Source of the DNA: Marsupella aquatica
Taxonomy: Eukaryota; Plantae; Marchantiophyta
Direction: 5' to 3'
Length of the DNA: 64,000 nt
Assembly: GCA_973895155.1 (NCBI GenBank)
Contig: OZ316894.1
Location: 619,968-683,967, forward strand
Position 1 is the first letter of the stretch; every line of letters begins with the position of its first letter. Positions 930 through 51,965 of the stretch are shown one piece after another. The translations under genes and the position numbers were made by a program. Below the pieces are notes generated by a model. It made no database searches. It had not been told where the DNA came from and saw only the letters and a program-made list of their open reading frames with translations.

Positions 930-967
930 AGTATTTAGTGCACCCCTCGGTAGAGGCAAGGGGGGGG
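930..967 (+). promoter_or_regulatory. Putative LTR core promoter (TATA-like plus C-run/GGTAGAG/G-run) of family A
   Basis: AGTATTTAGTGCACCCCTCGGTAGAGGCAAGGGGGGGG aligns with AGTATATAGAGCAGCCCCCCGGTAGAGACGAGGGGGGGGGG at 3691-3731 in LTR C. Confidence 0.45.
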
Positions 968-3690: not shown

Positions 3691-3731
3691 AGTATATAGA
3701 GCAGCCCCCCGGTAGAGACGAGGGGGGGGGG
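3691..3731 (+). promoter_or_regulatory. Putative TATA/core promoter of LTR C
   Basis: GTATATAGA followed by C-run, GGTAGAG and G-run; homologous to 930-967. Confidence 0.5.
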
Positions 3732-12506: not shown

Positions 12507-12680
12507 AGGAGCACAAGTGTTGTTCCTACGAGTAAATCCGCAATCCCACTAATCTAAGTGTCAGGGCTGTCTCCTGGTCCTGATCCTCATCCTAATCTTG
12601 GAGATCCGAGCCCGCCCTGCCCACTCACGCCTCCTACCTCCATGTCCGCCCTTCCTAAAAGGAACGGCGCCCTTGCACCG

Positions 12681-26500: not shown

Positions 26501-26854
26501 AGCCCCATTGAGCCACTCTTGTTTTCTAGACAAAACATCTAGTTTTAATTTCTTCCACACCCCTGAAGCATTTAGTTTACCAGCTTACTGATAACTACCC
26601 CTTCAACAAAGTATTTGATTACTTGGTTTGACAACATAAACTAAGTGAGTTTTGTGTTCAAGAATCATTTTCATTACAAGTAACTTTCAACTTAATTACA
26701 GAATATTCCATTGGTATCAAATTTAGGAATTGTATATCTAAGTTACTTAAGGTTGGGGTATCCAGCCCAACTCACGATTGGGATCATCTCAATCCAACCT
26801 TTCTTTGGTCAAACATTAAATTAGTGTGTAGAGGTTAACTGTCCGTACAAGGGT

Positions 26855-27760
26855 CATCCCTGTTAGCTGTTTGGATAGGGATCATCCTTATGTATTGTTT
26901 GGATAAGAATGATGTCTGTCCACCGTTTGGATAGAGATGATCCCTGTCCACCGTTTGGATGGGGATGATCCCTGTCCGGCTTTTGGATAAGAATGATGTC
27001 TATCCACCGTTTGGATGGGGATGATCCCTGTTCGGATTTTGGATAGGGATGATTCTTGTCCACCGTTTGGATAGGGATGATCCCTATCCACCCTTTGGAT
27101 GGGGATGATCCTTGTCCACCATTTGGATCCCTGTCCACCATTTGGATGAGGATGATCCCTGTCCACCGTTTGGATGGGGATGATCCCTGTCCGCCGTGAT
27201 CCCTGTCCACCGTTTGGATGGGGATGATCCATGTCCGCCATTTGGATAGGGATGATCCCTGTCTGCCATTTGGATAGGGATGATCCCTGTCCGCCGTTTG
27301 AGGTATTTGCTTTATGGGATCCCAATATGAAAGGTTTTACTTGATAGGACCGCTGAGTGATCCTAAGTGATCCGGACCTTGAATCATCCATGTCTATTGT
27401 TTGGACAGTGATAGACCCTGTCCGCCATTTGGACAGGGATCAGCTGTGTCTGCCCTTTGGACATTAACAGACACTATCCGCCGCTTAGGCAGGGATGATC
27501 CCTGTTTGCCGTTTGGACAGTGACAGACCCTATCCACCGTTCTGACAGGGATCATCTCTGTCCGGATTTTGGACAGGGATGATCCCTGTCTGCCGTTTAC
27601 AGGGATCATCTATGTCCACTGTTTGGACAGTGACAGAACCTATCTGCCGTCTGGACAGGGATCATCCCTATCCAAAGTCTGAATAGGGATCAGGGATCTT
27701 TGGGCTAGATAAGGATTGTTTAGGGACCTATTATTTTGCTTGATGGGGATGATCCCTATT
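26855..27760. repeat. 28-bp minisatellite with internally palindromic unit (two blocks)
   Basis: Consensus GATGATCCCTGTCCACCGTTTGGAYRGG with period 28 (e.g. 26936 to 26964). ATCCCTGTCC and GGAYAGGGAT arms are complementary. Confidence 0.88.
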
Positions 27761-27892
27761 TGCGCACTGTGCTTGGTGTGATGCCTAGCCAGGAATCACT
27801 GGGCTAGTTTAAAGTGGAAAAGGGAAGTGTACCCTAGAAACACCTTAGTATAGTTACAAAAATAAGGAAAATATAAACAATTAAGGGTGACT

Positions 27893-30800: not shown

Positions 30801-31837
30801 TCAAGGCCGACCTGCGTGAGAAGGACAATATGCTCGATCAGACTTACGCCAAGATGAACCAGATGGAGTCTGTCATCATTGCAGAGCTCGACAAGGAGTT
30901 AAGAGCAACCCGGGAGGAGAGGGCTACCTTGAAGAAGGAATTGGAGGAAGCCCATAGGGAGCTGGAGGAAGCCCAGAAAGAACTGGAGGAGGCGCGCAAG
31001 GACCTGGACGAAGTACAGGAGGAGTTGGAGGAAAGCACGCGGAAGCTGGAGAACTTACAGCGGCGATCCGACAACCAAACGGAGCGGCTGAAGAAACAAG
31101 CCGCAGTATTTAAATGCTTGGCTTCATCAGGCCCAACTCCAATTGGGGCCACCAAGTTACCAGGAGTGGTACTGGCCGAAGAACAAGCCGCGCCACTTGC
31201 ACCAGTGCCGGAAGTAAGTGGGAAGGGGAAGGGACCAGCTGCCGAACCAGAAAAGAAGAAGAAGCGGAAACCTTCAGAGTCAAAGAGTAATACGGCTCCA
31301 CAAGCCGTGGTGACCAAGGAGGTAGACCCAGCACCGACCCCAGGCAGGGTCACGGCAGAGGATCCAACTACCCTAGAAGGAGGGGACGGTAAAGCCGATG
31401 CCAGGATACTCGGTAATGAAGCCGAGGTACCGAACCCGCCACTTGAGTGTGCAGGGGAGGCCGTAGCCGATGCTGAGGCCGTAGCCGATGCTGAGGCCGT
31501 AGCCGATGCTGAGGCCGTAGCCGATGCTGAGGCCGTAGCCGATGCTGAGGCCGTAGCCGATGCTGAGGCCGTAGCCGATGCTGAGGCCGTAGCCGATGCT
31601 GAGGCCGTAGCCGATGCTGAGGCCGTAGCCGATGCTGAGGCCGTAGCCGATGCCGAGGCAGAAGCCGATGCTGAGGCCGTAGCCGATGCCGAGGCAGAAG
31701 CCGATGGTGGACCCAGTCAGGCCGATGGAGAGTTGACTCAGTCAAGGGCAGGTAATCTGTCAGAGAACGAACCTACGGCAGTGGCTGAGGAGGAAGCGTT
31801 GGGGGCGTCCACTGGGGAACAGACACCGCTGCCATGA
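27893..31837 (+). CDS. Family B long ORF, near-intact (one stop at 28148; 1227 aa open downstream)
   Basis: ORFs 27887..28150 and 28154..31837 are in the same frame. Contains the plant-transposon-protein-like motif, a coiled coil and a KKKKRK basic NLS-like patch. Confidence 0.8.
31457..31708 (+). repeat. In-frame 18-bp tandem repeat x14 encoding EAVADA
   Basis: GAGGCCGTAGCCGATGCT units; the other B copies have only 1-3 degenerate units. Confidence 0.92.
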
Positions 31838-32829
31838 CGATGGTGGAGGGCCGCTCCTTTCAAGGAGGGCGGACGTGGAGGGAGGAGGCGAGAGTGGGCA
31901 GGGCGGGCGCGGATCTCTAAGTTTAGGATTAGGATTAGGACCAGGAGGCGGCCCTAACACTTAGCTTAGTGGGATTGCGGTTCCACTGGTAAGAACAACA
32001 CTTGTACCCCTGCCTCGCTGTACATAGGTAGATTCAGTTAGGTAGATTCAGTTAGGTAGATTAGGCTTACGCTGCAAGGAATTAGGCGGATCCGCGCCAG
32101 GATAAGTACCTGGGCTGCGGGGAGCTCAGGGCCTCTTCTTTAGCAAGTTTTTAGTTGCACCAGCCGGGCTGGGATCAAGTAGTAAGAGAAGCTCTCGGTT
32201 AGTCATACAGTGATCCTTGTGTATATTCATGTTTCCTCATGCCTAAGAGCTGAATAGAGTTGGCCTCACGGCTTAGTTCGCAGAGCTTGTGTATGAGATG
32301 TACTGTTTGTATGGCAAGTGCATGGTATGATTCAGTTAGAAGGAGTCATTTTGCTATTTGTGTGTCGCATTAACTTGTGTGAAGAGTGCCCACATCAACT
32401 AATAGAAGGAAAGTAAGCAAGGGAGTGAGAGTTGGATGTGTCGAGCTGAGAGAGGTCTTAGCGGCTTAACCAAGCCTATTGGGGATCATTCCGGTGGCGG
32501 AATCCAAATATACCTAACCAGAAGGGGGAAGACAAGGGAAGGCCTAGATTAGGCCGGCTTCGTATCTCATGACCCGATGAAGGATCTGTCCAGTATATGT
32601 GTGTAAACTGTTAATAGTAGTAGTAGAAGGAAGTTAGCAGCGTCCCATGCCGCTAAGCCGCAAAAACGGCCTCGCCAAGCGCGAAACCTGCGGGAATCGG
32701 CTTGTGCAGGGGGGTTTCTTGGGTTTAGGGAGCCATGGGACGCACCACACTTGGATAGGGTTCACACCTATCTGCTTCCTAGTTGGGACCATTGTTAACT
32801 AATTATACCTTACATTTCAAATTGTGCAG

Positions 32830-33730
32830 GTGAACACGTTGTAGGAATGACTGGAATATTTTTGAGAGGCGACAATGTGATATTGACAATTGGTGGTTAC
32901 GATGTTGCAAGCGGGACAATTCAAAAAATCAACCCGCAAGATAGTGTTCAAAAGATATTGTTGAGAGAGAATCGAATGGGCGTTCTCATTGAGAAAGTTT
33001 TTGACCGAACCACAAAACTACCATTTCCAATGCCTTGGGCAGAAAACCTTTTTGATGCCATTGATTCTTGCGTTATTTGGGATTTGTCTTGCGCATATCT
33101 ATCAACGATAACAAATTCTCAAAAATGCATTAGTGTAGGTAGTTGTTCAAATCGACCGAAGAGTAATTTGGAGAAAAATCCAATTGTAGAGGAGGACTCA
33201 TCGACCACTCTGAGGCAAGGGGATGAGGTTGAAATGTTCATCTTTGGGTGTTATGTAGCCCTTGGAGTTGTTTTCAATACAAATCCAATGGAAAGATGTC
33301 ACAACATTTTACTTGGTGAATCACGGATTAGTGTGAGGGTCACTGATGTCATTCATGGGAGTAGGGTTTTACCTTACAAACACAGTGGGGCTGAAACAAT
33401 TGACGAGGCAAAAGACTCATGGGTTCTCTGGGATGTGGCAGATGTCCAAAGTAGAAAGGGTTTCTCAAAGAAGGATGCGGGTGATGATATCAACATAGAG
33501 CGGAGTTTTGTTGTGGAGTCTCCTCAGCTGAAATTTCTAAAACTAATTGTGACTATTTCCAACGGTCAAATTGGATGTCAGAGTTGGTCAAACTATACAT
33601 CGGTTCAGATTGAACCAATAGGGTTGCCACGGGGACCATCACTGTGTCTCAAGAAACGGCGGCGGTTGATGATGAAATCCTTGGTGAGGACCATGTAGGG
33701 ATTGCTGTGAAAGATGTGGTGGAATCGGGG
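32830..33730 (+). pseudogene. Exon of CACTA/En-Spm TNP1-like accessory protein with three tandem domain repeats
   Basis: TTGTGCAG acceptor at 32829. Repeats are VASGTI..LPFP..DAIDSCVIWD, VALGVV..LPY..EAKDSWVLWD and a frameshifted third, VATGTI..ILGEDHVGIAV, truncated near 33730. Confidence 0.55.
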
Positions 33731-33738
33731 TAGCGAGG

Positions 33739-34294
33739 ATCATCAGTTATCAGTTTTGCCGCCTTGAAATTTCTGAATCTCAGCTGAGCAGCTGAGATAG
33801 GGCCTTCGCACTTTTGCGCATCTTAGCTGGGGCACCTGAGATTGACTCAATCTCAGCTGACCTTGCCGAGATTGGCCTAAGGACAAAAAAATGGGAAAAA
33901 ATTTAAATTTTTTTTTCAGAAATTCTCAAAAAAAAATTAAAATAAAAAATTTTCCGACAAAATTTGGTGTCCGTATTGTACGGACATCGGACTATCTCGG
34001 CGGGTCTCGCCGAGATGCAGTGTCCGTACGGTACGGACACCCATAGTGAAAAAAAAGGGGGGGAATTTGTTTTTTTGAGAAATTTTTTAAAAAAATTTTA
34101 ATTTTTAGTTTTTTTGTCCTTACGCCAATCTCGGCGAGGTCAGCTGAGATTGAGTCAATCTCAGCTGCCCCAGCTGAGATCCGCAAAAGTTCTTTTTTCG
34201 CATTTTTTTTCGGCGCCCCAACTTGGCGGCCTCTCTAAGATGACGTGGCGACTGATATCAGGTGGACTGATGGAAAACACTAATAACTGATGAT
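33739..34294. repeat. Nested fold-back palindrome (MITE-like, or terminal structure of the adjacent transposon)
   Basis: Outer IR ATCATCAGTTAT/ATAACTGATGAT; ~80-bp arms at 33810-33891 and 34110-34190; inner self-palindromic TGTCCGTA..TACGGACA pair and central ATCTCGGCG/CGCCGAGAT. Confidence 0.8.
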
Positions 34295-34437
34295 GTAGCT
34301 TTACTCTGGTGGAATCACAATACTTTCCCAATTTCCATAGGGGAGTAATTACTTTGGTTCGGTGGCGGATTGATTCAACAAAACTACTTGCAAACGGGAA
34401 ATTTTTGTCAGACATTTTGGTTGAAGGTTCAGAGAGG

Positions 34438-35853
34438 ATGGAGACGGTGGATAGGGATGATCTCTATCCAAATGTAAATGATAGGGGAATGCCGCGCACA
34501 AGGCCATACAATTTCAACAAGAGGACTCATGTAGATCCGATTGAAAAGAAGAGAAGGCTATTGGAAACCAAGGCAGTTTCAAAAACAACGGAAGCTTCAA
34601 TTGATGAAATTAAAAGAGAGAATTGTTGCAAGCAGAAATGTTGTCGGACTATGCCAAGAGAAGACATAGAAGATATCCAGATAGAATTTCACGGGATGTC
34701 TAGCGAGTCAAAAACATCACACATTTTCAACCTCTTCCACTACAGAGAAGATGATGTTCGTGATAAGGGGCACCATGTTCTCAAGGGTATGGTCGTATGT
34801 AGACATGCATTTGCAATCATCCATGGCTTTAGCCACACGAAATATTATGATTACAAAAGGAGATATGTGGAGGGTTGCAAAATTGGGTTCCATGGAAACA
34901 CGGGTTCCAAATACCTTGCATGCACGAGCTTTGTTGGAGGATTTTTTGACTCGAAATACAGAGCCCATGCCTCATATACCTCATGCTGGGGCTCATGGGA
35001 CAGACTCCATTGAGTATCGTCTTCTAGCATGTTACAAGAAGTTGGAGATTTTGGAAGATGTGAGAACAAAGATGAAGGAAGAGGGGCTTCCCCCAGTTAC
35101 AGAGAATACTCTGTACGAGATTTGGAGCAAATCATTCGTAAACTTCAATTTCCATAAAGATGGTGCATTTGCCAAGTGTACTCTTTGTTGTGAATACAAA
35201 GATAGTTTGATGCGAGAAAGAAGGAAAAAAGAACGTGCTGAAATTGAAGAAAAACGAGCACAACATCTTCGTGAGCAGATGTCACGTAGATATGTTTACT
35301 ATGCTCATTGAGTGATGGCTAAGCAACATCTAGGGGAATATCTTTGCATCATTCACGACAAGATGGATCAACCAAAGACGTGGATTCCAAAAATGGTCAG
35401 TACTCCTAAATCGCTTTCGGGTCATGGGATGCCACTACCTATTGCTCTCACAAGGATGTTGACCCACGGAAGGGATCCAGGAGTCTATGCACACTTTAGT
35501 GTCACTGGCCTTTGGCCAGGAGATGCTAATTTCATGGTGACATCCTTGGCTAAGTGTCTTCGAGACCTTGAAGAGTACAATGGAGAGAAGACAGATGACA
35601 TGTTGGATGGCCTTTATTTGGAACCTCATAGACCTTTCTTTCAAGCCCTTTTTTACTTTGATGCATTTTTTAAGGGATATTTGGAACCAAAGAGTATTCC
35701 AATGAATAGGTATATTGGTTCTGAAGATGCAACCGAGAGTCAAACGGAGACGGTCTCCATCCAACATGGTGAGGATCAAGGAGAGGACATGCATGGGGAA
35801 CAAGGCAGTCAATCTTTCAAGCCCTTGCCAAGGCACCTAACATTGCAAATGGA
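34438..35853 (+). pseudogene. 5' part of DUF7869-type (tentatively Sola-like) DNA transposase
   Basis: Motifs CCKQKC, VCRHAF, FAKCTLC, YLCIIHDKMDQPKT..P, THG and LPRHLTLQM. It breaks off where LQxDN is expected and contains a frameshift and a stop. Confidence 0.6.
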
Positions 35854-38800
35854 AGCTTCCAGCCCCAGCGGTCCAATCCATAAAAATATCACGAGGTTGG
35901 GTGACAAGCTCAATGACAGATTGCATAAACCCAACAGACAGGCGAGCATTTCCAGAAAACTCCATTTGCGGGAATGGATCGGATTTGAGAGAAGGGAGTC
36001 CGATCAAATTGGTGACCAAGGGGTCCTCACTGATGGAGAGTGGACGGAATTTAGGGTCTTTGGGAATTTTGCATTTCCCATTAATTCAACCAAATATGTC
36101 CAGCCTGAGGGTAAACATCTGCGGAAAGCAATCCCAAGTGTCAGTTGGCAACTCCAGGTTAAACAAGTTATATTTCAAAATGCGACATAGTTAAGAGTAC
36201 ATGATTACCTGACAGTCTGTCTTTGCCGCGTACATCGGGACAGACATTACAACATTATGCGTGCATATGCACTGAAATTTTCTCGATTCCTGACAGGCAG
36301 CAATGACTTGAGACATGGGATCATACTCCCCATTGTGTAAAATTGCAAGGAATCCATCATCTGATAGAAATGGATCCATGGACTTGAAAAAAGATCTAGC
36401 CATGGAGTGATCTGGAGTGTTCCATTTAGGAACCTTCTTATCTATGATCGTTGGTTTGAACCCGGTTGGTAGGTAAATGAAACCCGCATCCACTCCAAAC
36501 GATCTTTCTTTTCCTCCCCGCACAACACCCTTCTCTTTATATCCCGACTTAACGAGATCCTTCCCCCACTTCTCCACATTACTAACCCATTCAGGTTTTT
36601 CCCCCTTGTTGAAAGTCGAGTCAAAATTTTTGGATATGCTTGTCTCAACCATGGCATGACGAGACACTCTAGTTTTGAAGTTTCCAACTTCACGTTGGAC
36701 ACCAGATGCTGCAACACTCTCCCTTGAAGAAGGTCCACCTTCGATAGCTCTCTTTCGTTTCTTCCTGGTACTTGTGGCGTCAACCAGAACTATTACCTTC
36801 CCCTTGTCGACAGGAGTAATGGGGTCCGATCGAGCTCCGGTGTTTGCCTCAGAAACTTCAGGTGTAGCATCCACTTTAGTATCTCCTATTCCCGCAGTAT
36901 TAGACTTCCTCCCTCCTAAATTACCAATAAGTCCTAGTTAGAACAAGTAAATCCCGAGTATTCAAACAAGCTAGCGCCAGGCGCTAACCAAATGCAAATC
37001 ACTTAGGTTACAACAAAGGCCTAAGAATGTAGAAAGAAATGTGAATTCGCATGATAGTTCAAGCCAGCGCCAGGCGCTGGCCATACTAGGGAACACTATA
37101 CTCACTTTTCCTCCCAGATTTTGTTGACTCGCTTGGTGCTGCTAACTTCACTTTTGCTTTCGCTCGAGGTTTGCGACTTCGGTCCACATGAACAATAGTC
37201 GTTTCACAGATACTTTGCAAGTCAGTGGCAGACTTGTCTACATCATCTAGCAGGCCCTGCTTCATGTCGGACACAATTTTTGCTGGTATGTGGGACTTTG
37301 AAAGCTTATGGAATGCATCTTTCTCCCTTTGATCAAAAGGAGAATCCCATCTATCTGTATCTAGATACCAGGGGCAGTGAGTTCTCTCCCATTCTGTCGT
37401 AGGTCTTGGAGGAAATATGCCCTCCGCTGGGTACATGGAGTACAAATCAGCTATGGCGTCATCCTCACTTATTGTAATCCACTTCATGAAAGCTGCAGGA
37501 TATGCCCAGAAGTAATCAGGTTTGGTTACCTCCATGTGCATGTAGAACCTGTAAAGATACCTTTTAGCCCGCTTCTGGTTTTTCTGGGTATAGTCTTCTT
37601 TGTCTGGATACTTTGAAGGCCACATAGTGTGAAAGAACTTACTCTTCACAGAATCACCATATCTCTTGAATTCATTTGTAACAAACTGAACGAGATCATC
37701 AAACGAACCACAATTCCACTCTTCCAATCTAGTGGCGGGCATAGTTTGCTCTACTTCACGCAGACATGAATGTAACATGTTGATAACAATTCCCTCTACA
37801 CTATTCCAAGTGATCCAAGTATGACACCATTGTTTGACTGGGTCGTCGTTAACACTTGCCGGGTGGAAAAACTGTCTCCGTAGCTCAGGATTGCAATGTG
37901 CCACAAGTAGGATGCTCTGCAACTTTGGGTCTAGGGCAGAAACAGCACTGAACAATCGGGCGCGGTCCATTGTACATACGACGGCGTCAGGCTTCTTCTC
38001 TCTCTTGTTTCTCTCTGTGACAGCATACATTTCTGCACATGTACTAAGAAAATCTTCAAATTCAGGACTTAACAAGGGCGTAATTTTTGATGACTTCAAT
38101 GCCCAGTCTTTGGTTGCGTCCTTCATCATGGCCGCATGGCGTTTGGAAATCTTGTCCACCGACCAGGGACTCCCTTGAGCCTCGACTGCCTCCATGTCAA
38201 GCTTGAATTGGTGAGAATAGGACTTTATCTTATTCTCACATAGAATGTAAACAAGAGCTTCCTGTGGCATCTTCTTTGTATACCATGACCCCTTCCGAGT
38301 CTTTAGCCGAATGCTCTCAAACTTCTTGAAATTAGCCGGGTCAATCAGTTTACTGTAATACTCAAGGTCATGCGCCAGAATTTGTTTGATTCTATCTGCA
38401 TCGAGAATCTAGGATGGCTCAACAACTGCTTGGCCAAGCCTACACGAAGAGATGCAACGAGTTAGAGTCAAAGTACAATTTATCTATAACCAGCGCCGAG
38501 CGCTCTTAAATAGAACACTCGCAAGATTCAAAGAAGGTACCGGAAAAGAATGAGAACTTACTGATTCACGGTGTGCATAGCTGCCTCAATTTCAATAAGA
38601 GATCCCTTGTCTCCCTTAAATATTGTGCAGAGCACTCAAGGATGGTATTTTGGATTGTCAGGGTTCTCCTCGGTAACAAGCGTCCATGAGTACAGCCTGT
38701 GATTTCCATCGAAGACAGAGAAAATCTTATCCTTCAACACGAGAAAATCTGGATCGGCCTCGCATTCAGCCTCAAACTTCTCGTTCTCCAATTGCCAAAT

Positions 38801-39313
38801 TGGATCCCATGACTCACGAATTTCCTGGGTACAGGTTAGAACAATTCCATTCTCATCCGTTGGCTGCACATAGAAACGCATTCCTATGGATGAATTGTAA
38901 CCCATACTGCGAAACGAGTCTTTCAGCTTCTCGATGGAAGAGCTATCTTTCTGCAAAGTACGAACCACCTCCATATGAACCAATCGGCATAGAGGGATTT
39001 GAGGCGGCTCCTTGTCAAATCCACGAGAATCCTTTCCAAAACACATGACATGTTTTGAGATGAGATCAGTCTCTGCGAGTGCGCAGTCCGAAACATCTTG
39101 GATCGCAATCGTGTCGAGGTTCTCCATCTTTCTACGCAGAGATTTAGGAACCAAAACAACGCTAACAGAAGTAGGAGACAACAACTTTGTGGAACGAGTT
39201 ACACGACGTGTATAAACTGAACCAGTAAACGAAGACTGCGAGGATTCAGAATAAGCTCGCTCTTGGTCAAGAACAACACTATACCCTCTGGATGAAGAGG
39301 AGAATACCTCCAT
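35851..39313 (-). pseudogene. Four-exon ParB/Srx-like plus N4/N6 DNA methyltransferase-like fusion gene (3'-truncated, 3 premature stops)
   Basis: Exons 39313-38562, 38439-37106, 36933-36209 and 36118-35851 join in frame through GT-AG introns. ParB-like motifs IPLCRL..VVR..KLKDSF..GY..VFDGNHRL; MTase-like motifs VDAGFIYLPTG, FLSDDGFLAI and VIELVTQPRDIFMDWTAGAGS. Confidence 0.7.
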
Positions 39314-40276
39314 CGTCTTCCTTCCAGAAGCGTACGAACTATCGTACAATGAAATTATGGAACTCTAATCAACTCTCAATGTGTAATATATTCTAGAAGG
39401 AGGGTGGAGTTCAGCGGAACTCTTCAATTAAAGCGAGAAGCTCGTAAGTTTGGCGGATTCCAACGTATGTATGCTGAGAACTTAATTAGCTAAATCAAGC
39501 GGTAGAAGAAGCGTAACACACACGGAACTCAGAAGTTACCGTTAAATGTTACCGTTATGACCGTTTTCCTCCCTCACTCGGAATACTAGTGCCGGGCGCT
39601 ATTATAAACAACTTCCCTTGAAGTAGATAATTTGGATGATTGTCATGGCAGCGCCCGGCACTAGTAAAAACAACAGCTATAGAATAGGTCTTAAATGGTG
39701 CCTCAAATACATAAATTTCATCAAAACAACCCTATATTTAAAGAAATGTCTATTGTTTTAATGGTTTTTGGGAAACATTACTTGCATCCTATACTAGCGC
39801 CCGACGCTAGTGATAACGAGTATTTTTCATCCATAGTTTTAAAAGAATTCAAATTTTCATTGATCATTTCAATCCAATTATTTCATAGTATTGATGGATA
39901 TCTGGAGGGTTTTTTGTATACTAGCGCCAGGCGCTAGTATGGAATATCGAGATTTGGGGCATATTATGTTGGAGACATTTTAGTTAGCGCCAGGCGCTAC
40001 TCAAATTGTTCCAACTATACAATATCTTAGAGTTTGTTAAAGATTTTTGTGGTGTCTTTTTTGGCATTATGTATGCGTCTGACATCCGGACTTATCGGGG
40101 AAAAACGACAAAAATCATTTATGTCGCCAACGGATCCTATGTCGACTATGTTTGATGTCTTATACAAACGGATCTGTTAACGTGAAGTTCCCATGTTCGA
40201 CTGATATAAGCTCCATATTACCATAGACTTTTCTTCCTCAAAACATTACAGCCCTCGTTATTTGTTTTCGATTGCA

Positions 40277-43200
40277 ATGTCTCGGTCCATCGTTCTATCC
40301 CGATTCGGGACTGGAGATATTGTGAGCATCCCCGTCCCTGTGGAAGACACGTACAAGCAGGTCCGGGAGAGATACCTTTGCGGGAGATTTGATTTGAGGA
40401 TGAATGATATTGAGGCCATTGTTCGAGAGCTCAAAACCAGTGATGACATCGAAGATGCAGCAACATTCAATGTGGATGATGGTGAACGGTTTTGGCATCT
40501 ATACGCGGGGATTTTGTACTCACTTCGAGTAAGACAACATGAAGGACCGTCCAGTGTCCCCCAAGTTCCATTTGATGTTGTCAAGATTTCTTCTAGTGAA
40601 GATGGGGATCACACTCCAAGTCCTACGTTGAAAATGAAAGTCCCGCAACATGCTGTCGTTAAAGGTGAGACTCCAGGAAGCTCTAACCAGTTGGAGGTCA
40701 TGTATTGGCGGAGTGCAATGGATACGTTACTCAAATCCACTGGTCATAGCGAGTTATCAAGGTTCATATCAACGGGTGATTTCAGACATGAGCAAGTCTC
40801 CTGTCTGCCAACTAAGTACAACGGGAACGTTGTGTTTGAATTGCCACCCATTGACAAGATGCTCTCTAAAGGCTCTAGGCTTAGGGACATGGACTGTGCC
40901 AAAGATTGCTACATTTGGACACGCATATTTCCAACTACCGCGAACGTTCAGCCAAAAAAACTTTGGCAATTCGGTAAGGTTACCTGTACGAGATTCATTG
41001 AATGTCGGAACAAGTCCTACGAGTACTTCCAAAGGAAGAAGAAGGCAAATGCTAAGGCATGGCAGGGTACTCCAAAGCTTAGTGGTCAGTATGCTGTCGG
41101 ATCTTTTATCGAAGAGGGCGGTGTTGTGTGTCATTATTGTGATCAGATTCCTTTTTGTGTCAAGTACTGCCCTGCCCGTTTGTTCTATATGTACCCACAA
41201 GTATTACTTGATGCGGAAACATGTAGTCATATGTCCCGCCTGGTGATTCATATAGGTGAGCATAACCATCCAAGTAGAAAAACCTTCTGTAGGAGTGCGG
41301 AGAAGATGGCTGAGGATTTAATTAAAAAAAATCATGAAGCCAATCCTCTGGCAAAACCAGCTGGGATCTTGAATTCTGCTACAGAGTCCATAGTGAAAGC
41401 TCTTTGCGAACATGTTGACGACATGGTCGATATCGAAGAAACTGAAATATGGAAGTCTCTGATGGTACTTTCCACTCCCCAGAAGTTTGCATCTCTTTGT
41501 CGGAGCGTTAGGATAGACCAAAAGGGTCGGGGTGAACTTGATTTTCTCTTGCAAATGCAAAAGAAGATTAACCTGTCGTTTCTCTAGAGGTATTTGCTCC
41601 CGGGTCAGGGATGTCAAGACGATAGGCCTCACACCTTTAAAATGACTAGGAAGGGTCACGGTTCCGGTGTGGATCTTTTGAGACAGATGCAACCTGGTGG
41701 AAGACTCGAAGGAGCCTTGGTCAGTTTTGATGTGATGCAGCGTATCACAACCGATTGGTTTACTTTTAGCGCGCATGTCTACAACCATAACTTCCGTGCA
41801 CTTTGTACAATTTTCACATGCGAGTTGAAAGGTGAAGACACTGAGTCTTTCGAAAAGGCTTGGAGAGTTATGATTGAGGTTTGCAAGGAGAATGGATTAC
41901 AGGAGGTTGTCATCCAAGGGTTTATGGCGGACAATGCACAAGCTGGATGGAATGCTGTGCGGAATGTTTTTTTTGGTGGACACCCAGACCCGGAGAGGGA
42001 GCGCTCTGATGCATTTCACTTTTATCAATCTTTCCATCGGCATTCCAAGGAAGGAGTACTCAAAGAATGTCAATCGGAACATCGGAGACTTTGGGAGAAA
42101 CTAAGAAATGCTCCAACATTTGTGGTAGCGTATCGCGTGTCCCGAGAGATTGTGGTTTGGTGGCAATCAGGAAACTGTGTCCCTGGAAAGCTCATGATGC
42201 TACAAAGCTGGATATCCTGGTGGGTTGTTTGATGGTGCCAGTGGGGCAATTTTATTCGAGTGGTATGATATCCATCTCCTCTCTTGTCTTTCATTTCCAT
42301 CAACTTTATATTAGCGCCAGGCGTTGGTATGATTTGCTCGTATTTGAGTCCAGCATGTCCATAAAGTTCTAGAATCATAATCTAAATTGTATTTCACGTA
42401 TGTTATAAATACTTGTCGGAGCCAGCGCCGGGCGCTGGTAATACAATGCTAGTACTGATTATTGCATTCGGACTATGGCAGAGCAAAAGCGCAGAAGAAG
42501 GTGCCTTGATTCCAAACTGTACAGGGTCAGAATCAAGGCATGCGTCTATGAAAGCCTGGCTACAAAGAAAAAAGTTGGTCTTTTTGAAGCATGCAAAGTG
42601 GACCAAAACCGAGCCCTGTCTCAAGTTGCGAGATACAGTGCATATCAAAAAGGGTTGAACAGAGGAAAGGGACCGACTATATGGGAATTAGCGTTCCGTT
42701 CCGCCGATCAAGCAGGTTTGCCGAGGTTATTTGAAGATGCAACCAACATGCTTCTTTCCAACGCGGCGGACTTTGATTTGGAAAGAAGTACTCCCCTTAA
42801 CGGAGATATCGTGACCAAGTCAATGAAGAGAAAGGGACATGCAACTGGGACTGTCTCTCCACAAGACTCCCATCAGCATGACACCGTTCTCATAACCACA
42901 CCAAATACTCGTGGTTTGAAAAGGAAAAACCTAAACAGAACTGACTTTGCCTCCATTCCCTCAAATTCTAATGATCCTGTGACAAGAGTGGTGAATCTAG
43001 GATGGACCATCGAGCGGATCCTCCTTACTGAAGGGACGGGAGGCAGAATTTTGGCGTTTTTTACAAGTGCGATTGGATCTTATTGATGTCTATAACCTGG
43101 GCTGCACAGTGATAGGATCAAGATACACGTGGAGACGTGTCCGGCATGCAAACCTCACCCAGTCTAGACTGGACAGGTTTTACCTTAGTGGTCTTGGAGG

Positions 43201-46200
43201 TTGGATTGCTGGCACAGTGGAGCTAACTCATGATGGGGGCTCGTCACTGTCGGACCATGATCCCATTGTGGCTGTTTTGCGCTTTCAGATTGAGGAGAGG
43301 GATTCGGAAAGAGGTAAGTCCCACTTTTTTAAAGCTAACCCTTACGTACTCCGGGATCCGAAGAATATTGAGCAATTGGAGGCTGCCTGGCGGGCGGGGG
43401 GGGGTGGGCGAGGTGAACCCTCACTTGCGTTTCTCTCGTGCATGTCTGAGACTACGAAAAAAATATATGGAGTTGCAATCCGCACCGAGACAGTCTGAGG
43501 AGGAGTTGAACTTTCTGAGAGATAAAGTGAGAATACTTAAGACTACTATTGTAGATGAATGCTCACTGGATGAACTGACAGAGTTTCTGCAATGGGAGGA
43601 CATGCTTCACGTAGCTGAAGTTGAGACGGCGCACCAGGCCAGACGGTTAGCCAGAATTCGGTGGCTGGGAGAAGGGGAGGAATCAACTAAATTTTACTTT
43701 GCCACAGTCAAGGCTAAAAGAGAGAGAGAAGCTATGAGGATGCTAGTAAAGGAGGATGGATCGGTACTTACAGATTTCAAGGACATCATTGGGGAAGTAG
43801 AGCAGCAATGTGAGGCGCTTTACTCTCCTGGGCAACCATCTGAGGAGGAGCTACTAGAAAGCAGGTGCAATAGGGATAAGCTATTGCGGAGTACTAAATC
43901 GGCATTCACGGCGGCGGAGATACACAGGATGGAGGCACTTCCTACGATCTCCGAGGTGAAAGAGGTGTTGTGGCTTCTCCCGGAGGACAAGGCCCCTGGG
44001 ACGGATGGGCTCACGGCTGAGGTTTACAGAGCCTGTTGGGAGTTCATGAAGGATGATATGGTGGCAATGATACAGGATTTCTGGCTCACAGGCGAGTTGG
44101 CTGCTGAGATCAAGGATGGCCTGATAAAGCTGATACCAAAAAAACCTGATAAAAGATACTTGAAGGACTGGCGCCCTCTGACGATGCTTAACACTAGCTA
44201 CAAAATCCTGGCCAAAGTGATCGCTCTACGAATTAAGCACCTGCTATGTAACCTGATCAGTCCTCAGCAGACCGGGTTTATCCCGGGTAGACATATCTTA
44301 GAGAATATTTCGCTTGCTTGGCTTACAAGTGACTGGGTTCAGAATTGCAGGAAGGGAGCATTATTCCTAAAACTTGACTTTGAGAAAGCATTCAACAGGG
44401 TTAACCACGAGTATCTCTGGGAGTCTATGTTGCTGCTGGGATTTAGTGGTAGGATTGTGAACATAGTTAAAGCCTTGTTCTCTAATGCCAGCTCTCGAGT
44501 ACTAGTCAATGGCTTTCTTAGCAAATATTTTTTGATGTGTCGGGGGGTGAGGCAGGGATGTCCTCTCTCCCCTCTTCTATTTGTGATTTCTACCCAACCT
44601 CTCATGGATTTCTTGGATGCTGAGCTTGCGGCTGGTCGACTTGCTGGTATCCAGGTTTCAGATGTGCTTACAGTGTGCTACAGATTGTTTGCTGATGATG
44701 TGGGGATGTTCATCCCTGCAACAGAGGAAGCGTTTAGGGATGCTACTACGGCTCTGTCATGTTATGAAAGTGCATCTGGTGCTAGGCTGAACTTACGAAA
44801 ATCTGTTATCATCCCACTTGCTTTGGACCTAATTCCAGACTGGCTCAAGGCTACAGGCTGCAAGATTAGTGAGCAAGGTGAAGTGCAGAAGTATCTGGGT
44901 GCTCCATTTGGTATTGGACTCTCAGTGGGTAATTTACATCGCTTCTGCCTGGATAAGGTTGCGGCACGCTTGTCCTCTTGGTCAAATAAATTGTTGTCCT
45001 TCACAGGTCGAACGTTGCTGGTGAAACATGTGCTCATGGCAATACCGATATATCACGTAATATATATGAAGGCCTCGGAAGGGCTGGCAAAGAAACTGAT
45101 TGCGCTGTGCAGGGATTTTCTATGGGGTTATAATCTTGAGGGCGGGAAGAAGATTCCGCTGGTGGCATGGGACAAGATGGCTCGCCCTAAGGTGGATGGC
45201 GGACTGGGGTTTCGTGACTTTAGAAGTCACTCTGATGCGCTACTTACTCAGTGGTTTATGAAGGCCTTGGATTATCCCAACACGGAATGGGCTGGCATGC
45301 TTGCTGGTAATCTGAGTCTTATTGGATGGCTGAATTTCAGGGTGATTAGGCGAAATCACTACACATTTGCAGATAAGCTGCTTTTATGTACTCCAAGATC
45401 TTGCTGCGGGCTGACATACACTTGGGGAATCTGGAAGGCCTGGGAGGCTTTGAGAGCAAATCTTTCCTTTGTCCCAGGGATTGCGGGCTTTCCTGGGAGA
45501 TGGAGTATACAGGACGCATTACGCTGTACACAGGGCTTTAATACTTGGCCTTCGGCACACATAGAGTTCACTGTGGAAATCTGTGGGAGGCTTGGGATAC
45601 GGGTGATTGCCGACTGCTGGAATGCTGAGGCGCACCAATGGAAGGACTTTTCTGGTAGATGGTATTTGCTTCGAGGGTGGGCGCTGGCTCACAGGGACAG
45701 ATGCCATCAGTTTCTACTTGTGATTGGCAGGGGACGCTGCTGCAATGGTGGGCTGGTGTCAGGTGCTCGTTGTTGGCGTTGGCTTGAGATGGGGGTTCCA
45801 CTGAAGAGGTTCACAATTCCTAACAAACACGCGTACCAACTTCTAAGACCTAAGGGCTTGGACTACCAAAGATGGAACAGAATTTGGCTCACCAACTGGA
45901 CGGGGAGGTATGGGGTAAGAGATGGCATGCTCTATGGGGTTCGGACCTGTCCACTAGAGGAAAAACCTTTCTATGGCGAATCATTGTCGGTGGCCTGTTT
46001 ACGGGAGCAAGGGCCCTTACTATTGGTGCAAGTGATGGTATCTGTCGGCTATGCCCTGGGAGGCTTGAAAGTATTCCTCATCTGTTCGTCCAATGTGTGC
46101 ATGCTGCTGAGTGCTGGAGACTATGCTATGACTGCTGCCTGGGAGTTATGTTTGCACCTGGGCAGGATCTTCTAGACAAGGTGGTGGCCTCATTTGGTCG

Positions 46201-47840
46201 CAGTCCATTGAGGGTGGCTCGTCTATTCCTACTGTTTCAAATTGTGTGGATGATTTGGCTGGGACGTAACACACAGATGTTCAAGGAACTTGGGCGCAGA
46301 TCCTTTGATGTAAGATTGGTTCTTTCTGAGACGGTTTCGCACCTGCATGGGGCCTCTCTACGCTTCCCGTCAGGCAGTAAACACATTCGGCTTCTTAGGG
46401 CTAAAGAATTAATTGAAATGGAACGGAGGCGCTGGTTGGTGCGTAGAGATGGACATGTGACTTCGGGCTGATGATGCTTAGAGTAGGTTAGGCTCTTTGA
46501 TTGGTGCTGTGGCTCTGGTGGGCTTGGGTTGGGCTCACCTGTGCGGCTCTGTTTTTTGCTTTTGGGGCTTACCCTTGTGTTATGGCTACAGGCCTTTAGG
46601 TTGCTCATGGATCTGGCTCTTGCTGTCGTTGACTGGCTGGCTGGGGTTGGGCTCTTTACCGGGGCCGTATATGATGTCTGGGCGTGCCCTGTTTTAGGGG
46701 TGCCCTGCTGGCCTCCTGCGGGAGTTGTCCTTTTGTGTTGTTTGCTTCCCCCGCCGTGGGGTTTTCACGGGTTATTTCTATAAAAGTTAGAAAAAATTTC
46801 CAAGGAAGAGTGGTGAATCTCTCTGGTATGGACACATCAGATGGTGATACTGATTCACTGGACAATACCCCTCAAACAACCCGTACAACAAGATCCACAA
46901 AACCTCCGCTCAGTGCACTAGCCTCACTTCAGAATCCACTTTCACGCACAATTGTGCTCGAGAAGGATGTCCCTCTGGGGCAGTGGCAGCTGCGACGGAC
47001 GTCCAAGTATGGAGCAGGTCCCCAGTGTAATGGGACACTCAATGGGAGTTCTGATCACGATGAGTGTCGAAATTGTATCAAGAAGGTTGGCTTCCATTTG
47101 TCTAACGGTGTTGTTGGAATTGCCGTGAAGGGCCATCGTCTCTTCAGGGGCGAACCGATCTCCAAAATGATTTGGTTCTGCCCAAACCAAACCTGTTATA
47201 AGAGTTGTCCGCGTCGTGGTGTTCATCAGCTTCCTCCTCTTCCTGAAATTTTGCCTGTTCTGAAGGGTACGAACCTATCTCCTTCTGAAATCACGTTCCT
47301 CGAAGAGCAAGGACTTGTCTTGGCCCGAACAACAGGATCGAGTCGATCTGCGCCATCTTTGTTTGACCTCAAGATAAATGTGAACGTGTTCCCAGAAACA
47401 ATAAGGTTTTTGGAGCCAAATGTCCGGCTGGGTAGTCGGAATGGGAGGAACTCAAGACCTCGGTCTAATCTCACTGTGGGTCACACTAAGCGAATGGAGT
47501 TTGCACGACAAGAAGAGATGAGTTTGGATGGGGAATGGAATGTTCGGACTGGAAATGCTTTTGGAAAGCAATTTCGAGTTCGAACCCATGAGAACCTTCG
47601 ATCACCAAGCACGTACTTCGTGCAAATCTGTATCTTCCCTGCTTGCTCGTACATGCCTTGTACGAGCACATGTCGTACATGTACGAGCACAAGTCGTACA
47701 TGCCTTGTAAACATCTATACTGGGTGTACATAAATGTTTTCAAACTTGAGGTTGAGGAGTCGACTCTTTGTAGCCAACCAATTTTGACTGTGGGCGAAGT
47801 CAGGCTTGTCTTGGAGAGGCAGAACTTGAATGGTTTATAA
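40277..47840 (+). pseudogene. GCM-like/MULE-type DDE transposase with C-terminal SWIM finger, split by a LINE
   Basis: Cys/His N-terminal domain ending HIGEHNHP; motifs SFDVMQR, GFMADNAQAGWNAV..DAFHFYQS, SESRHAS and GKGP; SWIM-like YFVQICIFPACS..PCKHLYWV. Likely intron at ~42264-42481; stops and frameshifts present. Confidence 0.7.
42999..46805 (+). mobile_element. 5'-truncated L1-like LINE (EN C-terminus, RT, zf-RVT)
   Basis: 15-bp TSD AAGAGTGGTGAATCT at 42984-42998 and 46806-46820. Motifs SRLDRFY, SDHDP, KAPGTDG, LDFEKAF, QGCPLSP, FADD and CRLC..HLF..C. Confidence 0.93.
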
Positions 47841-48531
47841 TAGGGGCCAAAACTTCCGCATAGGTCGTTCAATATAACGGATAGTCACTATTTTGTCTTT
47901 ACCCAACGGATATGTTACTTGTTTTATTCAGTATTTTTTTATTAGCGCCGGGCGCTGCTTTTATTATGTACGCGTGTAGTGTAAGCATTACACTATGTTT
48001 TATTTAAAATGTGTAAGTTGATATCATTTTGTTTTATCTTTCAAGCCACGTTTATTCAATTATTCTGAAATAAATCGTTAGGAGGTGTTTTGTCATTTGT
48101 TTGTCACGGTACTTGGTCCATTTAAGTGAACTCATTTTGATTGAGTTCATTTGGACACTACTCTTCACTTGTTCTGTGGTGGGTCCCACCCTAAGGTTCA
48201 CTTTTTAGCTTGGACGAATAGTGATATTTGAATGAATGTTTCATTGAGTATAGTCCTCATACCGTGTTCAGTTATCTTCCAGATCAAAATGTTGTTGCGA
48301 GGGAGGACTGCTAGTACTCTTCATCCATCGGATGGCACACAATAATTGTTTGTTTTAAACCTAATTCACTTCAGAAAAATTTTGTGATTAGCGTAGTTTT
48401 TCATTCGGACCAAAGGGCTATGGTTGATGCAAAACTGGTAACAGGGAATCGCTTACTGGTAACAGTTATATTTGATTGTTAACAACAAAAAATTTCCTGG
48501 TAACAGGTTTTCTGTTTTCTATTTTCTGTCA

Positions 48532-49626
48532 TGGCTATCATACCCCAGATTGATACAAGAAATTGCATCTTACAAAGAATATCTTCAAACTTTCAAAGTT
48601 AAAGATATTCAAGGTCACTCAAAACCCGTATCATTTCTTTTCTCTATGAGAGATAATGTACCAATATTTCAGTATATGTCCCATGTAAAGCAAGCTTGGG
48701 CTCCAGTTGGAGGAAGGTGCATTTGGGCAACAGATCCGACAACAAATTCTCTTCTTTTACCTAGTGGAGAGCCCTTAGCTAAATCCATTGGAGAGATACA
48801 CAAAAAATCTGAAGAGATTATCCCATTTCTTAACAAGTACCTTGATTTTTTGAGAAGGAGTTGCACTGATGAGACATCTATAGCATATAAGGAAAGATTT
48901 CCTCTTGTGAAATATTGGGAGAGAATTGTGGAGTTGTTGACAAATGGGCTCGCACTAGAAGGGGAGGGAAGTACTCAATTTCCCTTGAAAAATGGATTTT
49001 GGCCTAAGACTAACCACGGCACTGGTTACAAGGTCAACCAACCGGAACAAAGTGGTCCTCCAAGTGAAGATGAGGAGAATGCGGAGATGACGGCTCTTCA
49101 AAATGAGGTCTTGGAAGAGATGGAAGATCAAGCAGCACCATTTGTTGGATCTCGAGCTGAGAGAGAACAAGGACGGTGGATTCCCCTACAGGATATTTGT
49201 GAAGGGAACTTTGTATTTCTTCGACCCGAGGATGACTGGGAGAATAAAAATGGTGGAGGTCATTTTTGGTTGGTGAGAGCTTTGGGTTCGGTGGACCCTA
49301 AGCATGAAGTCCCAACTACATCTCCAACAAACCCTCCTCTGCCTCAACAATATGCTCCAATGTTTCCAGTTGAATGGTGGAGGCCTAAACACTCGAAACT
49401 TGATGTGACTAAGAGTGCACGGTATCTAAACTGCTTCATGTCCACTAAGACATGGGAACAAGATCCAGGGGTTAGTGAGAACGCTCAACATTGGCAATAT
49501 GCAAATTCTGCAATGTATGGTTTTAAATCTGGAATGAAAGAAGAAAACATGGCGGGTAGAGGTTTGAAGATTCCTCGAAATGCTCTACAAACTGTCCAAA
49601 GTTATCTTCAAAGGATGGACAAGTAG
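48532..49626 (+). pseudogene. 3' part of the DUF7869-type transposase
   Basis: PRLIQEIASYK..IQGHSKPVSFLF..PIFQY..WAP resembles the C-terminal region of this family; same strand as 34438-35853. Confidence 0.5.
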
Positions 49627-49808
49627 ACTTAGTTGTTAGAAGCTATAATAATTAAATAGATAGTTACTAGTTTTTATGTAAGATAGTCACTCACTCAAAC
49701 ATAGTAACTTACGTACTAGTTATTTACTATTCTAATAGTTTTAATGTGAGACCATGCCATTGAGTGTTAGGTATACTATCTCCTCATTTTTTAAACTTTT
49801 GATGGTTA

Positions 49809-51965
49809 TGTCACGTCGTAGGCTTCGGCCTTAACTCAGACTTCAGCTTAGACGGGCACATCCCTCGTAAATCTGAGGGTTCGGGCAGGAAGGGAAGCAC
49901 GTAATGCACCTTATTCTCGTAAACTAGCGCTAAGTGCGCATACTGCTAAATACGGACACCTCCTAGGTATGGTTTGTGTTCCGCCGCCGGAACGTACCCT
50001 AGTCGATAGCAGGATCGACCCCGGCTTAAGGGCTTCTAAGCCTTCGTGCTGTCCGCCTTCGATCCGGATTCGATGATACAGGTCCTCAACCCGTGCTCGC
50101 AACCACTTACCCGCAGGCTGCACCCTGTGCACGTCTCGGGTAGTGCGTTCGGCCCGGCGCTGCCACCCATATACGAGAAACCCACACACATATGCGCACA
50201 CATGCATACAATCTCGATTTACACGAAGGAAAAATGATGGGAAAGGATTTTTACTACAAAGGGAACATATGCGTACACTTAGTTGACACGACAGCCCTGG
50301 AATGCACAGGTTCAAGGCCAAGGGTGCACACTACAACGGAGCCCGGCTCCGCACTCGCCCGGCAAGCTTAGTCCTACCCCCTCCCCTTGGTACTCTGTCA
50401 TTCCCAGAGGTCGGGACTCCCCGCATGTCCCGCGGATGTCCGACTCTGAAACTAAAAACCCCCCCTGCCTCTACCGAGGGGTGCACTAAATACTAAGAGC
50501 CGAGGAACGGGGTGTCCTCCCGCCGAAGATTCGCTGACCAAGGTCCTAACTAAGCTGACAGTCAGGCCGGAAAACGCTGTGTCTTATTAGAAGATCCTAA
50601 TCTACGCAGGCTGGACAGCAGGGCAGCGCTGCCGTACCTAAGGCAGGTGCCTGTCCCAAGAGCCTGACTAAGCCAATCCTAATCCTAATCTATTCCTACT
50701 CCGCCGCTAATGCCTGGCACGCTTGCCAGAGCCGCCCGAATGGGAACGGCCATCCCGCTGCCTTCGAAGCCTGTCATTGTCCGCTTTGAGGAGCTGGACC
50801 TGGTCCAGCAGAGATTCGTTCTCTCGCCTCGCTGCATCCGTCTCCTCTGCTGCCTCCTGACATGCCTCCTCCAGCTGCTGGGCGTCGCTCGCCAGTTTAC
50901 TCGCCAGCTGGTCCTTCTTCTCGGCCTCGGTTTGGAGCCGCGCCATCTCGGCCTGCAGCGTGGCTATCTCCGTCGCGTCCCGCTGGGCTCGCTCCTCGGC
51001 CTCCTCCAGGTCTTTCTGCCAGGTGACAGCTTGTTTCTTCAAACTGTCAATCTGGTTCCGGAGTCGTGTAATCTCGGCCTCGTTCCCAGCTTTGGCCTGT
51101 TCGGCTAGGGCGGTAAGAGCGTACGCCTTTGCTAACAACTCATCGGCGGCTGCAACCTTGGGTCGTAGTTGCAGAAGCTCAGCCTCTTGAGTCGCCACTT
51201 CGTTCTTTAGGTACACGGACTCCACCCGGTACCGCTCTATCCTCTGAAGGGCCTCCGACTGGGCCCGCCCTGCCTTTACGGCGGCAACCAACTCCTGATT
51301 GAAGAAACAGGCTACCTTCCGAGCCATGAACTCCCCGGTATCCCGGGCAATTTGATGAGAGAAATCTCCCAGAAGCCCGTTCAGAAACGTACCCTGTACG
51401 AAGAGTTTCGGGTGGTCCAAGTTGTGCCTGTCCGGATTTGGGCACGGGCAGACATCAACACGCGCAGGGGCCGGGGCGGCCACGGTCACCATGTTGTCTG
51501 CTGGGGCCGCTCCTGGGGTCAGAGCAGGGGGTGGGGACGATATAGTGTCGGCCCCCCGAGCGCTTGTTCCTCTGGGCTGCCTGGTCAAGGGTGGGGTAGC
51601 CTCGTCGTCATCGCTAAGATCCACAGTGTTGATGACGGAGCGTACCTGTGCTGGCTGGGTGATAGGTGGTGGGGTTTGGCTAGGCTGCGGCTGAGGCTGA
51701 AGCTGAAGCTGAGGTTGCATGGGCACGGGTACGGGTACGGGTCCGGCTGAGTTGGTCATGTTGGTTGATGGCCGAGTTCCCATGAAGCTCTGTAGGTGCT
51801 GGTAGAAGTTCTCCGAAGCGAGTGCGGACGCCCTTGTCGAACGGTTGGTACTGGACTCGCCGTTAATGACTGCCCGAACCGGTGGCAATTCCGGAGAACC
51901 GGACATCGCTGCAGGAGGACACTCCGGCCCCTTCCAACGTTATGTCCCCAGGGCTGGACGTCACT
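49809..51965 (-). mobile_element. Family A copy A2 (inverted relative to A1, other end lost at a rearrangement)
   Basis: Begins TGTCACGTCG and is the reverse complement of 1-1615 with few differences. Confidence 0.88.
50707..51906 (-). CDS. Family A 399-aa protein (Pro/Gln-rich N-terminus, coiled-coil C-terminus)
   Basis: Uninterrupted ATG-initiated ORF, conserved in A1. Confidence 0.7.
   Translation of the reverse strand: MSGSPELPPVRAVINGESSTNRSTRASALASENFYQHLQSFMGTRPSTNMTNSAGPVPVPVPMQPQLQLQPQPQPSQTPPPITQPAQVRSVINTVDLSDDDEATPPLTRQPRGTSARGADTISSPPPALTPGAAPADNMVTVAAPAPARVDVCPCPNPDRHNLDHPKLFVQGTFLNGLLGDFSHQIARDTGEFMARKVACFFNQELVAAVKAGRAQSEALQRIERYRVESVYLKNEVATQEAELLQLRPKVAAADELLAKAYALTALAEQAKAGNEAEITRLRNQIDSLKKQAVTWQKDLEEAEERAQRDATEIATLQAEMARLQTEAEKKDQLASKLASDAQQLEEACQEAAEETDAARRENESLLDQVQLLKADNDRLRRQRDGRSHSGGSGKRARH

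Follow-up and report, generated by a model that had tools for sequence, protein, structure and literature searches.

Does a plant transposon encode a protein that recognises the DNA of its own element? The question is raised by a Mutator-like element (MULE) of the liverwort Marsupella aquatica, located in a 64,000-nucleotide stretch of contig OZ316894.1 (assembly GCA_973895155.1, positions 619,968–683,967 of the forward strand), the whole of which is called the window below. The MULE remnant (window positions 35852–48546) belongs to a multi-copy family, has lost its left end and retains an intact right end. It contains a transposase gene on the plus strand and, head-to-head with it on the minus strand, a spliced accessory gene, the product of which is predicted to join a ParB/KorB-like domain to a methyltransferase (MTase) fold; a palindrome, AGCGCCNGGCGCT, is scattered through its non-coding DNA. 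Taking together all readings that need such binding, we consider it likely that the accessory protein binds these palindromes. That it thereby keeps the MULE family transcribed or open is a proposition that we regard as evenly balanced.

A preliminary description of this DNA had counted eleven palindromes, confined to non-coding DNA of the element and absent from the rest of the window. This count holds when at most one mismatch is allowed: AGCGCCNGGCGCT then has 11 matches in the 64-kb window, six exact and five with one mismatch, spanning positions 36973–47956, where shuffled sequences give a mean of 0.09 matches and none of 100 shuffles reaches 11. With two mismatches allowed, one further window site appears, at 4837, outside the MULE. 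Three sites are located in introns of the accessory gene (36973–36985 and 37066–37078, both exact, in intron 2, and 38492–38504, with one mismatch, in intron 1), five in the 1149-bp divergent spacer between the two genes (39128–40276; sites at 39588, 39650, 39796, 39923 and 39986), two in the transposase intron (42263–42481, plus strand; sites at 42313 and 42424) and one, exact, in the 3' tail (47944–47956), where some copies have other letters. Non-coding DNA makes up 28% of the MULE once its inserted long interspersed nuclear element (LINE) is subtracted, and all 11 sites are found there (p ~8e-7); the third intron of the accessory gene (36119–36208) is the sole intron of the MULE without a palindrome. 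Two joints in the sequencing contigs, from 42265 and 42271 to 39917 and of a direction not shown, suggest that diverged copies keep a palindrome at the same distance within an otherwise different transposase intron.

Related elements were collected by a metagenome scan, which gave 71 loci (designated by L numbers) in 46 groups, near-identical loci being merged. The preliminary description had proposed to look among relatives for the gene pair and for a family-specific palindrome, and both are present in the metagenome loci. A homologous transposase is located upstream on the opposite strand in nine of the 46 groups, every upstream match being on the opposite strand, and in eight of the 15 groups that have at least 5 kb upstream; two further transposase matches are downstream pieces (L022 and L069). 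In L004 and L005 and, weakly, in L025, the ParB exon is followed by remnants of the MTase. The window motif AGCGCCNGGCGCT itself occurs in none of the 46 groups. When at least three palindrome copies are required in the interval that starts 2 kb upstream of the ParB exon and ends 1 kb past it, 10 of 46 groups have an array of their own, locus-specific palindrome, compared with 1 of 36 segments taken as controls from those contigs (Fisher p 0.019); among segments of at least 2.5 kb the number is 8 of 22 (p 0.001). L009 contains 17 copies of GAGGTGCC-n6-GGCACCTC, L002 has 12 copies of GAAGCC-n4-GGCTTC (at most two mismatches) in intron 1, and L013 has an array of TTGGCG-n4-CGCCAA. The transposase is present on the same contig for three of the ten array groups (L023, L025 and L068). 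With the gene pair recurring in relatives, several of which bear different palindromes, recognition by the protein of its own element is likely.

The motifs differ between relatives. A tree was built from 48 ParB domains, loci with matches shorter than 90 residues being omitted. In it, the window domain groups with L002 and Riccia proteins (99/92), L002 being nearest at 64% identity; this nearest relative has a different motif, located in the same intron as in the window. Judged by this transposon tree, the plant that carries the MULE would probably be a liverwort or a similar one. Sister loci share motifs, which was not counted as co-evolution, as it is expected by descent. The motifs of three GC-richer elements (the window MULE, L002 and L009) have a GCC...GGC core in common, with spacers of 1, 4 and 6 bases, respectively; this core may be a conserved half-site contact.

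These arrays also bear on an explanation that dispenses with a protein reader, in which the palindromes act as hairpins in single-stranded DNA or RNA, or are remnants of tandem repeats. Many sites in L009, L013 and L023 do lie in tandem units, and the spacers of 4–6 bases in relatives would be able to form loops; against this, L009 and L013 also have sites beyond the tandem block. The flanks of the AGCGCCNGGCGCT sites in the window are dissimilar (mean identity 32%, highest 44%), so a single tandem repeat does not account for these sites, and their sequence is fixed, without compensating changes. We regard this explanation as most improbable.

The accessory gene consists of four exons separated by three GT-AG introns, with 958 codons in one frame and three premature stops, which together with the 1149-bp spacer bears out the divergent four-exon minus-strand gene and the intergenic region of about 1 kb described before. 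Exon 1 (38562–39127, minus strand, as are the following) encodes the ParB/Srx-like domain with a DGNHR motif and contains one premature stop; exon 2 (37106–38439), also with one premature stop, encodes a helical middle region; exon 3 (36209–36915) encodes a basic linker and the start of the amino-MTase fold, with motif IV reading YLPT; and exon 4 (35852–36118) continues the MTase to motif I (DWTAGAGS), contains one stop and is cut by a deletion. Contigs in two of four sequencing runs skip 36121–36214, where they have four other letters and keep the frame (joint 36120/36215); the depth of this joint, about 2,200–2,300 in runs X3 and X4, indicates a well-represented set of copies. These copies without intron 3 confirm the junction of exons 3 and 4 and, together with the alignment to a Riccia protein given below, rule out an alternative frame for exon 4. 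The presence of intron 3 in some copies and its absence from others amounts to intron gain or loss within the MULE family. Distantly related loci share the codon position of the first intron (L002, 336–1153; L009, 4728 onward), and many unnamed protein matches stop exactly there.

Pfam searches of the window open reading frames (ORFs) gave no direct match for the accessory gene or the transposase, so both domain assignments rest on homologues. An exon 1 query matched 224 proteins at E ≤ 0.001; among 20 of these whose records were inspected, 12 are from Riccia sorocarpa, three from Adiantum and five without organism, with none from a seed plant. In a profile search, 80 of 83 matches were R. sorocarpa gene models on eight large records, as expected for a transposon gene. 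The spliced window protein aligns over its full length to the Riccia protein P0153 (26% over 1016 columns, E 1e-72). A structure model was made of Riccia P0166 from a 102-sequence alignment (mean predicted local distance difference test score, pLDDT, 70). Its C-terminus matches M1.HpyAVI in Foldseek with an E-value of 3e-6 and can be superposed onto M.MboIIA with a Z-score of 14.7 and an r.m.s.d. of 3.0 for 188 aligned residues. The beta-class amino-MTases matched by this part include M1.HpyAVI, CcrM, M.MboIIA and the rotifer N4CMT, and it has both the fold and the motif order (IV before X-I) of this class. PF01555 was found in 3 of 30 proteins, with E-values of 9e-6 to 5e-5, just short of the curated cut-off. 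A beta-class amino-methyltransferase fold is thus strongly predicted for the C-terminus.

For the N-terminus, a ParB/KorB-like domain is predicted with moderate confidence. Residues 100–265 of the P0166 model superpose onto KorB (PDB entry 8qa8) with a Z-score of 7.7 and an r.m.s.d. of 2.7 for 95 aligned residues, and onto PadC with a Z-score of 6.7 and an r.m.s.d. of 3.5 for 100 aligned residues; among the matches listed, these two are the sole ones confined to the N-terminus. Seventeen of 101 family members weakly match a ParB-like PHROG (best E 0.0027). The G, N and H of a GxxR-type motif are nearly invariant in 101 sequences, and DGNHRL is present in at least 90% of 16; the GxxR motif serves nucleotide binding in the ParB/Srx domain. 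The PDB, searched by sequence and by profile, yielded no ParB, Pfam searches of the 101 members returned no ParB family (DUF1015 and DndB weakly, in five of 101 each), a single-sequence fold of exon 1 reached a pLDDT of 31, and word-based searches of longer proteins, with exons 1 and 2 as queries, gave no match. The ParB/Srx-like and amino-MTase-like domains of the preliminary description are supported by the model. For a ParA partner, no ATPase was found in the window ORFs scanned, the left end of the MULE being lost.

KorB represses at long range from palindromic operators. As it is also the best structural match of the N-terminus, the accessory protein might bind the palindromes as a KorB-like repressor and limit transposase expression or copy number, a role with which the five palindromes in the shared divergent spacer and the degenerate MTase motif IV described below would agree. 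The other palindromes, in introns and the 3' tail, are remote from promoters, and the layout of the sites resembles that of activating VANC targets (PMC5735166; here and below, cited papers are represented by their available excerpts). We consider repression unlikely.

The transposase gene, on the plus strand, starts with an exon (40277–42262) that contains a Cys/His zinc-finger region, the MULE core with the first two catalytic aspartates and two premature stops. The first part of exon 2 (42482–42998) contains the region of the catalytic glutamate and a frameshift near 42570, while in its second part (46821–47840) a local duplication, around 47648–47690, has damaged the SWIM finger. The core matches RNase H-like clusters of MULE and ZSWIM proteins with an Atlas score of 0.94 (recognition 2857); 20 of 30 Atlas matches belong to one MULE set, counting named clusters only, and the MULE family label is on 12–26% of the members in the top three clusters. 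With the D, D and E catalytic positions visible in the sequence, the transposase is of the MULE type, in agreement with the Mutator-like identity first given to it. Among its other labels, SWIM is supported, since the CxC...CKH finger, damaged here, is intact in other copies (loose contig ends) and in L064 and L068; a SWIM motif is a finger of the CxC...CxH type. GCM-like is reduced to a lead: the Cys/His pattern of the N-terminus is conserved across relatives, and Atlas gives GCM, FAR1 and ALS2CR8 at scores of 0.77–0.80. For the transposase core, neither metagenomes nor viral contigs yielded a relative when scanned, and in prokaryote genomes the single match, of 17 residues and due to chance, lies within an unrelated gene.

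The zinc-finger region makes the transposase itself a candidate reader of the palindromes, in which case the ParB-MTase gene would have another role or be a passenger. The AtMu1 transposase alone binds and activates cognate copies, its binding being at the termini (10.64898/2026.08.24.746577). The terminus of the window MULE bears a separate repeat: three CTGGTAACAG subterminal repeats, at 48435, 48456 and 48497 (right terminus, 48435–48546), which are likelier transposase sites than the palindromes. Three palindromes are located inside introns of the accessory gene, and in L002, L009, L013 and L028, all on short contigs, arrays flank ParB exons where no transposase is visible. In favour of such a reader, the element in which the MULE is nested (the host element) has a palindrome array as well, and there is no second ParB gene in the window. 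On balance, we find a transposase reader distinctly unlikely.

Read inward on the minus strand, the right terminus is GGGGTATG. Contigs of the sequencing runs have mixed flanks behind 48545, and the host gene resumes before 48544–48547, which fixes the right terminus and moves it from 48530, where it had been placed, to 48545–48546. It is the sole surviving terminus; MULEs typically have terminal inverted repeats and a target duplication of about 9 bp, and no inverted partner of this end is found in the 64-kb window. No palindrome occurs within 590 bp of it, which argues against a ParB clamp that arranges the transposition complex by bridging the element or shielding it while it excises and inserts, and that leaves chromatin and transcription unaffected; simple MULEs, moreover, transpose without such a protein (10.64898/2026.08.24.746577). 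A role of this kind, although in keeping with palindromes spread over the whole MULE and with a gene that even in remote relatives is kept together with a single transposase clade, seems very unlikely.

We return to a protein that binds the palindromes and keeps its family active. Observed are the two paired genes, the palindromes and their confinement to non-coding DNA, the head-to-head pairs of relatives and the change of motif; the two folds are predicted from a model, and we infer every functional step. A dimer of the accessory protein would read two half-sites, probably via the helical middle region of about 400 residues. The ParB domain would load and then spread along the MULE as a CTP clamp, the five palindromes of the spacer would set the expression of both genes, and the MTase module probably still binds S-adenosylmethionine and DNA. 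A more far-reaching version, which we judge unlikely, has an old MULE lineage in liverworts, ferns and related plants carry a self-recognition module of bacterial type and place a ParB clamp on family palindromes, from where the fused enzyme would write N4-methylcytosine or N6-methyladenine (4mC/6mA) against silencing by 5-methylcytosine (5mC), with protein and motif changing together between families. If true, land plants would have an epigenetic mark other than 5mC that is written by a transposon.

Several observations weigh against this reading, and the first of them concern the enzyme. The canonical catalytic motif IV of amino-MTases is (D/N/S)PP(Y/F/W). It is present in none of the 20 proteins scored: 19 have D/N-[LMIV]-P-[TS], D-x-P-T/S being the Riccia form, one fern protein has DVPF, and the window copy has YLPT. 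Other loci have DYPE (L004), DIPE (L005) and DIPW (L065 and L066). Motif I varies as D-x-x-x-x-x-G (DFAGGWG, DVTAHSG, DWTAGAG), with an acidic residue next in most. Because motif IV is without the second proline, and usually without the aromatic residue, an active methylase that writes 4mC or 6mA is doubtful, and the idea of self-marking is weakened. The KorB match is limited to the CTPase part, and a Z-score below 8 may reflect a common arrangement; no helix-turn-helix (HTH) or other recognition domain is among the structural matches listed. Seven of the 15 long loci show no linked transposase and 36 of the 46 groups no array, many of these groups being short or decayed. Palindrome arrays also occur in three of the 14 control segments from the window, two of them from the 28-bp repeat of the host element; with no second ParB gene in the window, such arrays are evidently not a privilege of elements with ParB. 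Among the contigs listed, none spans both genes within the family of the window MULE, and depth is reduced over the spacer. Three of four runs have loose ends before 47960, which reveal copies that differ at the 3' palindrome site. All five mismatches in the AGCGCCNGGCGCT sites are of the C-to-T type in CG or CHG context, and host methylation has therefore probably reached the palindromes in the window copy. The exons of the MULE have CpG ratios of 0.49–0.83 and CHG ratios of 0.83–1.07, compared with 0.37–0.50 and 0.48–0.62 in the host element; as a sign of protection this was dropped, because the LINE ranges partly overlap and the ages differ.

The concept of self-recognition is already in print, as a hypothesis, for brown- and red-algal transposons. 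The Sola1-1_Ec32 element of the brown alga Ectocarpus has a gene that combines ParB with an N4C/N6A-MTase, opposite the transposase, for which self-binding and self-modification have been proposed (PMC12477816). Its protein, of 1104 amino acids, compares with about 1100–1240 amino acids for full-length Riccia models and shares the domains and the opposite-strand layout; the element is of the Sola1 superfamily, palindromes are unmentioned in the excerpt, and the likeness to the window gene is one of description (PMC12477816). In the red algae, Bostrychia Plavaka elements have ParB genes beside inverted-repeat arrays, with homologues in Mutator elements of Chondrus (10.1101/2025.02.11.637652). 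PAG2 and PAG3 of these Plavaka and Chondrus Mutator elements resemble the window accessory gene in that a ParB gene lies by inverted-repeat arrays, with an N6-methylase in the cassette; there, however, ParB is fused to a 2-oxoglutarate (2OG) oxygenase and the methylase to SET, in separate genes, whereas ParB and MTase form one gene in the window (10.1101/2025.02.11.637652).

For VANDAL21 of Arabidopsis, anti-silencing by VANC21 has been shown (PMC5735166). Like the window MULE, VANDAL21 is Mutator-like and has an accessory gene and a family motif in intronic, intergenic and terminal non-coding DNA; its motifs turn over, often by tandem repeats, as in the relatives of the window MULE (PMC5735166). 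The VANC motifs differ in being non-palindromic 8–9-mers in one orientation, and ParB and MTase are unmentioned in the excerpt (PMC5735166). The window MULE has one trait of VANC-type elements, a family-specific motif enriched in its own non-coding DNA. KorB of plasmid RK2 and ParB function at palindromic sites. The accessory protein has in common with KorB and ParB/parS the ParB/Srx fold, the GxxR-type motif (DGNHR) and palindromic sites, and differs in that its gene is spliced and eukaryotic, with a fused MTase fold, no HTH matched and no ParA seen. With beta-class amino-MTases it shares the fold and motif order, but its motif IV is D-x-P-x. Marchantia DN4MT1 has TSPPY as motif IV, ParB being unmentioned in the excerpt (10.1101/2021.02.12.428880), and fusions of ParB-HTH with MTase are described in chlorophytes and chytrids, land plants having few N6A-MTases (PMC4738411).

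In the literature searched (subscription journals and Repbase fell outside its scope), we found no land-plant report of a ParB-MTase/transposase pair. New here are the extension to land plants, a MULE as the carrier, the linkage test, motifs specific to each family and a degenerate catalytic motif IV. Candidate sites are now explicit for several families, and full-length protein models exist in Riccia, close to the transformable Marchantia; the different motifs of different relatives would permit a clean specificity swap. If active, the enzyme would write non-5mC marks at targeted sequences, and 4mC/6mA on plant transposons might originate from it.

The window copy had been called dead, and stops, a frameshift, a LINE with target duplication and a left-end deletion are all seen. 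The LINE (42999–46805, plus strand; reverse transcriptase and zf-RVT domains) is flanked by a 15-bp target duplication at 42984–42998 and 46806–46820. Loose ends behind 35853 run on into the host element in three of the four runs listed, and this resumption of the host gene implies that the deletion took the left end of the MULE and the tail of the MTase. The MULE is nested in a transposase-like gene of the host element, the 5' part of which lies at 34294–35853 and the 3' part at 48547–49626, both on the plus strand and outside the MULE. The window stretch was matched in seven runs from five studies, six of which runs were compared with it. Summed contig depth in X3 and X4, which is not a copy number, is of the same order over both genes (about 8,000–29,000); it is 800–4,300 over the LINE and falls in mid-spacer to 2,400, against 8,000–18,000.

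Among the ParB loci, Pfam searches of 58 ORFs from 14 loci, mostly those without a linked MULE transposase, identified no other DNA transposase. Bestrophin and SURNod19 genes flank ParB loci (L065, 8534–10063, and L042, 6257–6880, respectively), consistent with eukaryotic, probably plant, DNA in the metagenome contigs.

The host element, which from its motifs we take to be CACTA/CMC-like, contains a 28-bp repeat array (26774–27762, 32752 and 34448) with the palindrome TGGATAGGGAT-N-ATCCCTATCCA. It has a second ORF at 32799–33698, gave no Pfam match, and has an imperfect inverted repeat between its two genes (33810–34190, 76% over 395 bp). The region 7115–32749 is a cluster of nested repeats, all of one unclassified family, with five related copies of a 750-bp LTR-like (long terminal repeat) sequence, 89–94% identical, and long ORFs of up to 1228 amino acids (28151–31837) that have only weak coiled-coil Pfam matches. 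Finally, a 1.6-kb repeat is present in inverted copies at 1–1627 and 49797–51422, 98.4% identical and with an ORF at 50707–51939; it is probably a young LTR.

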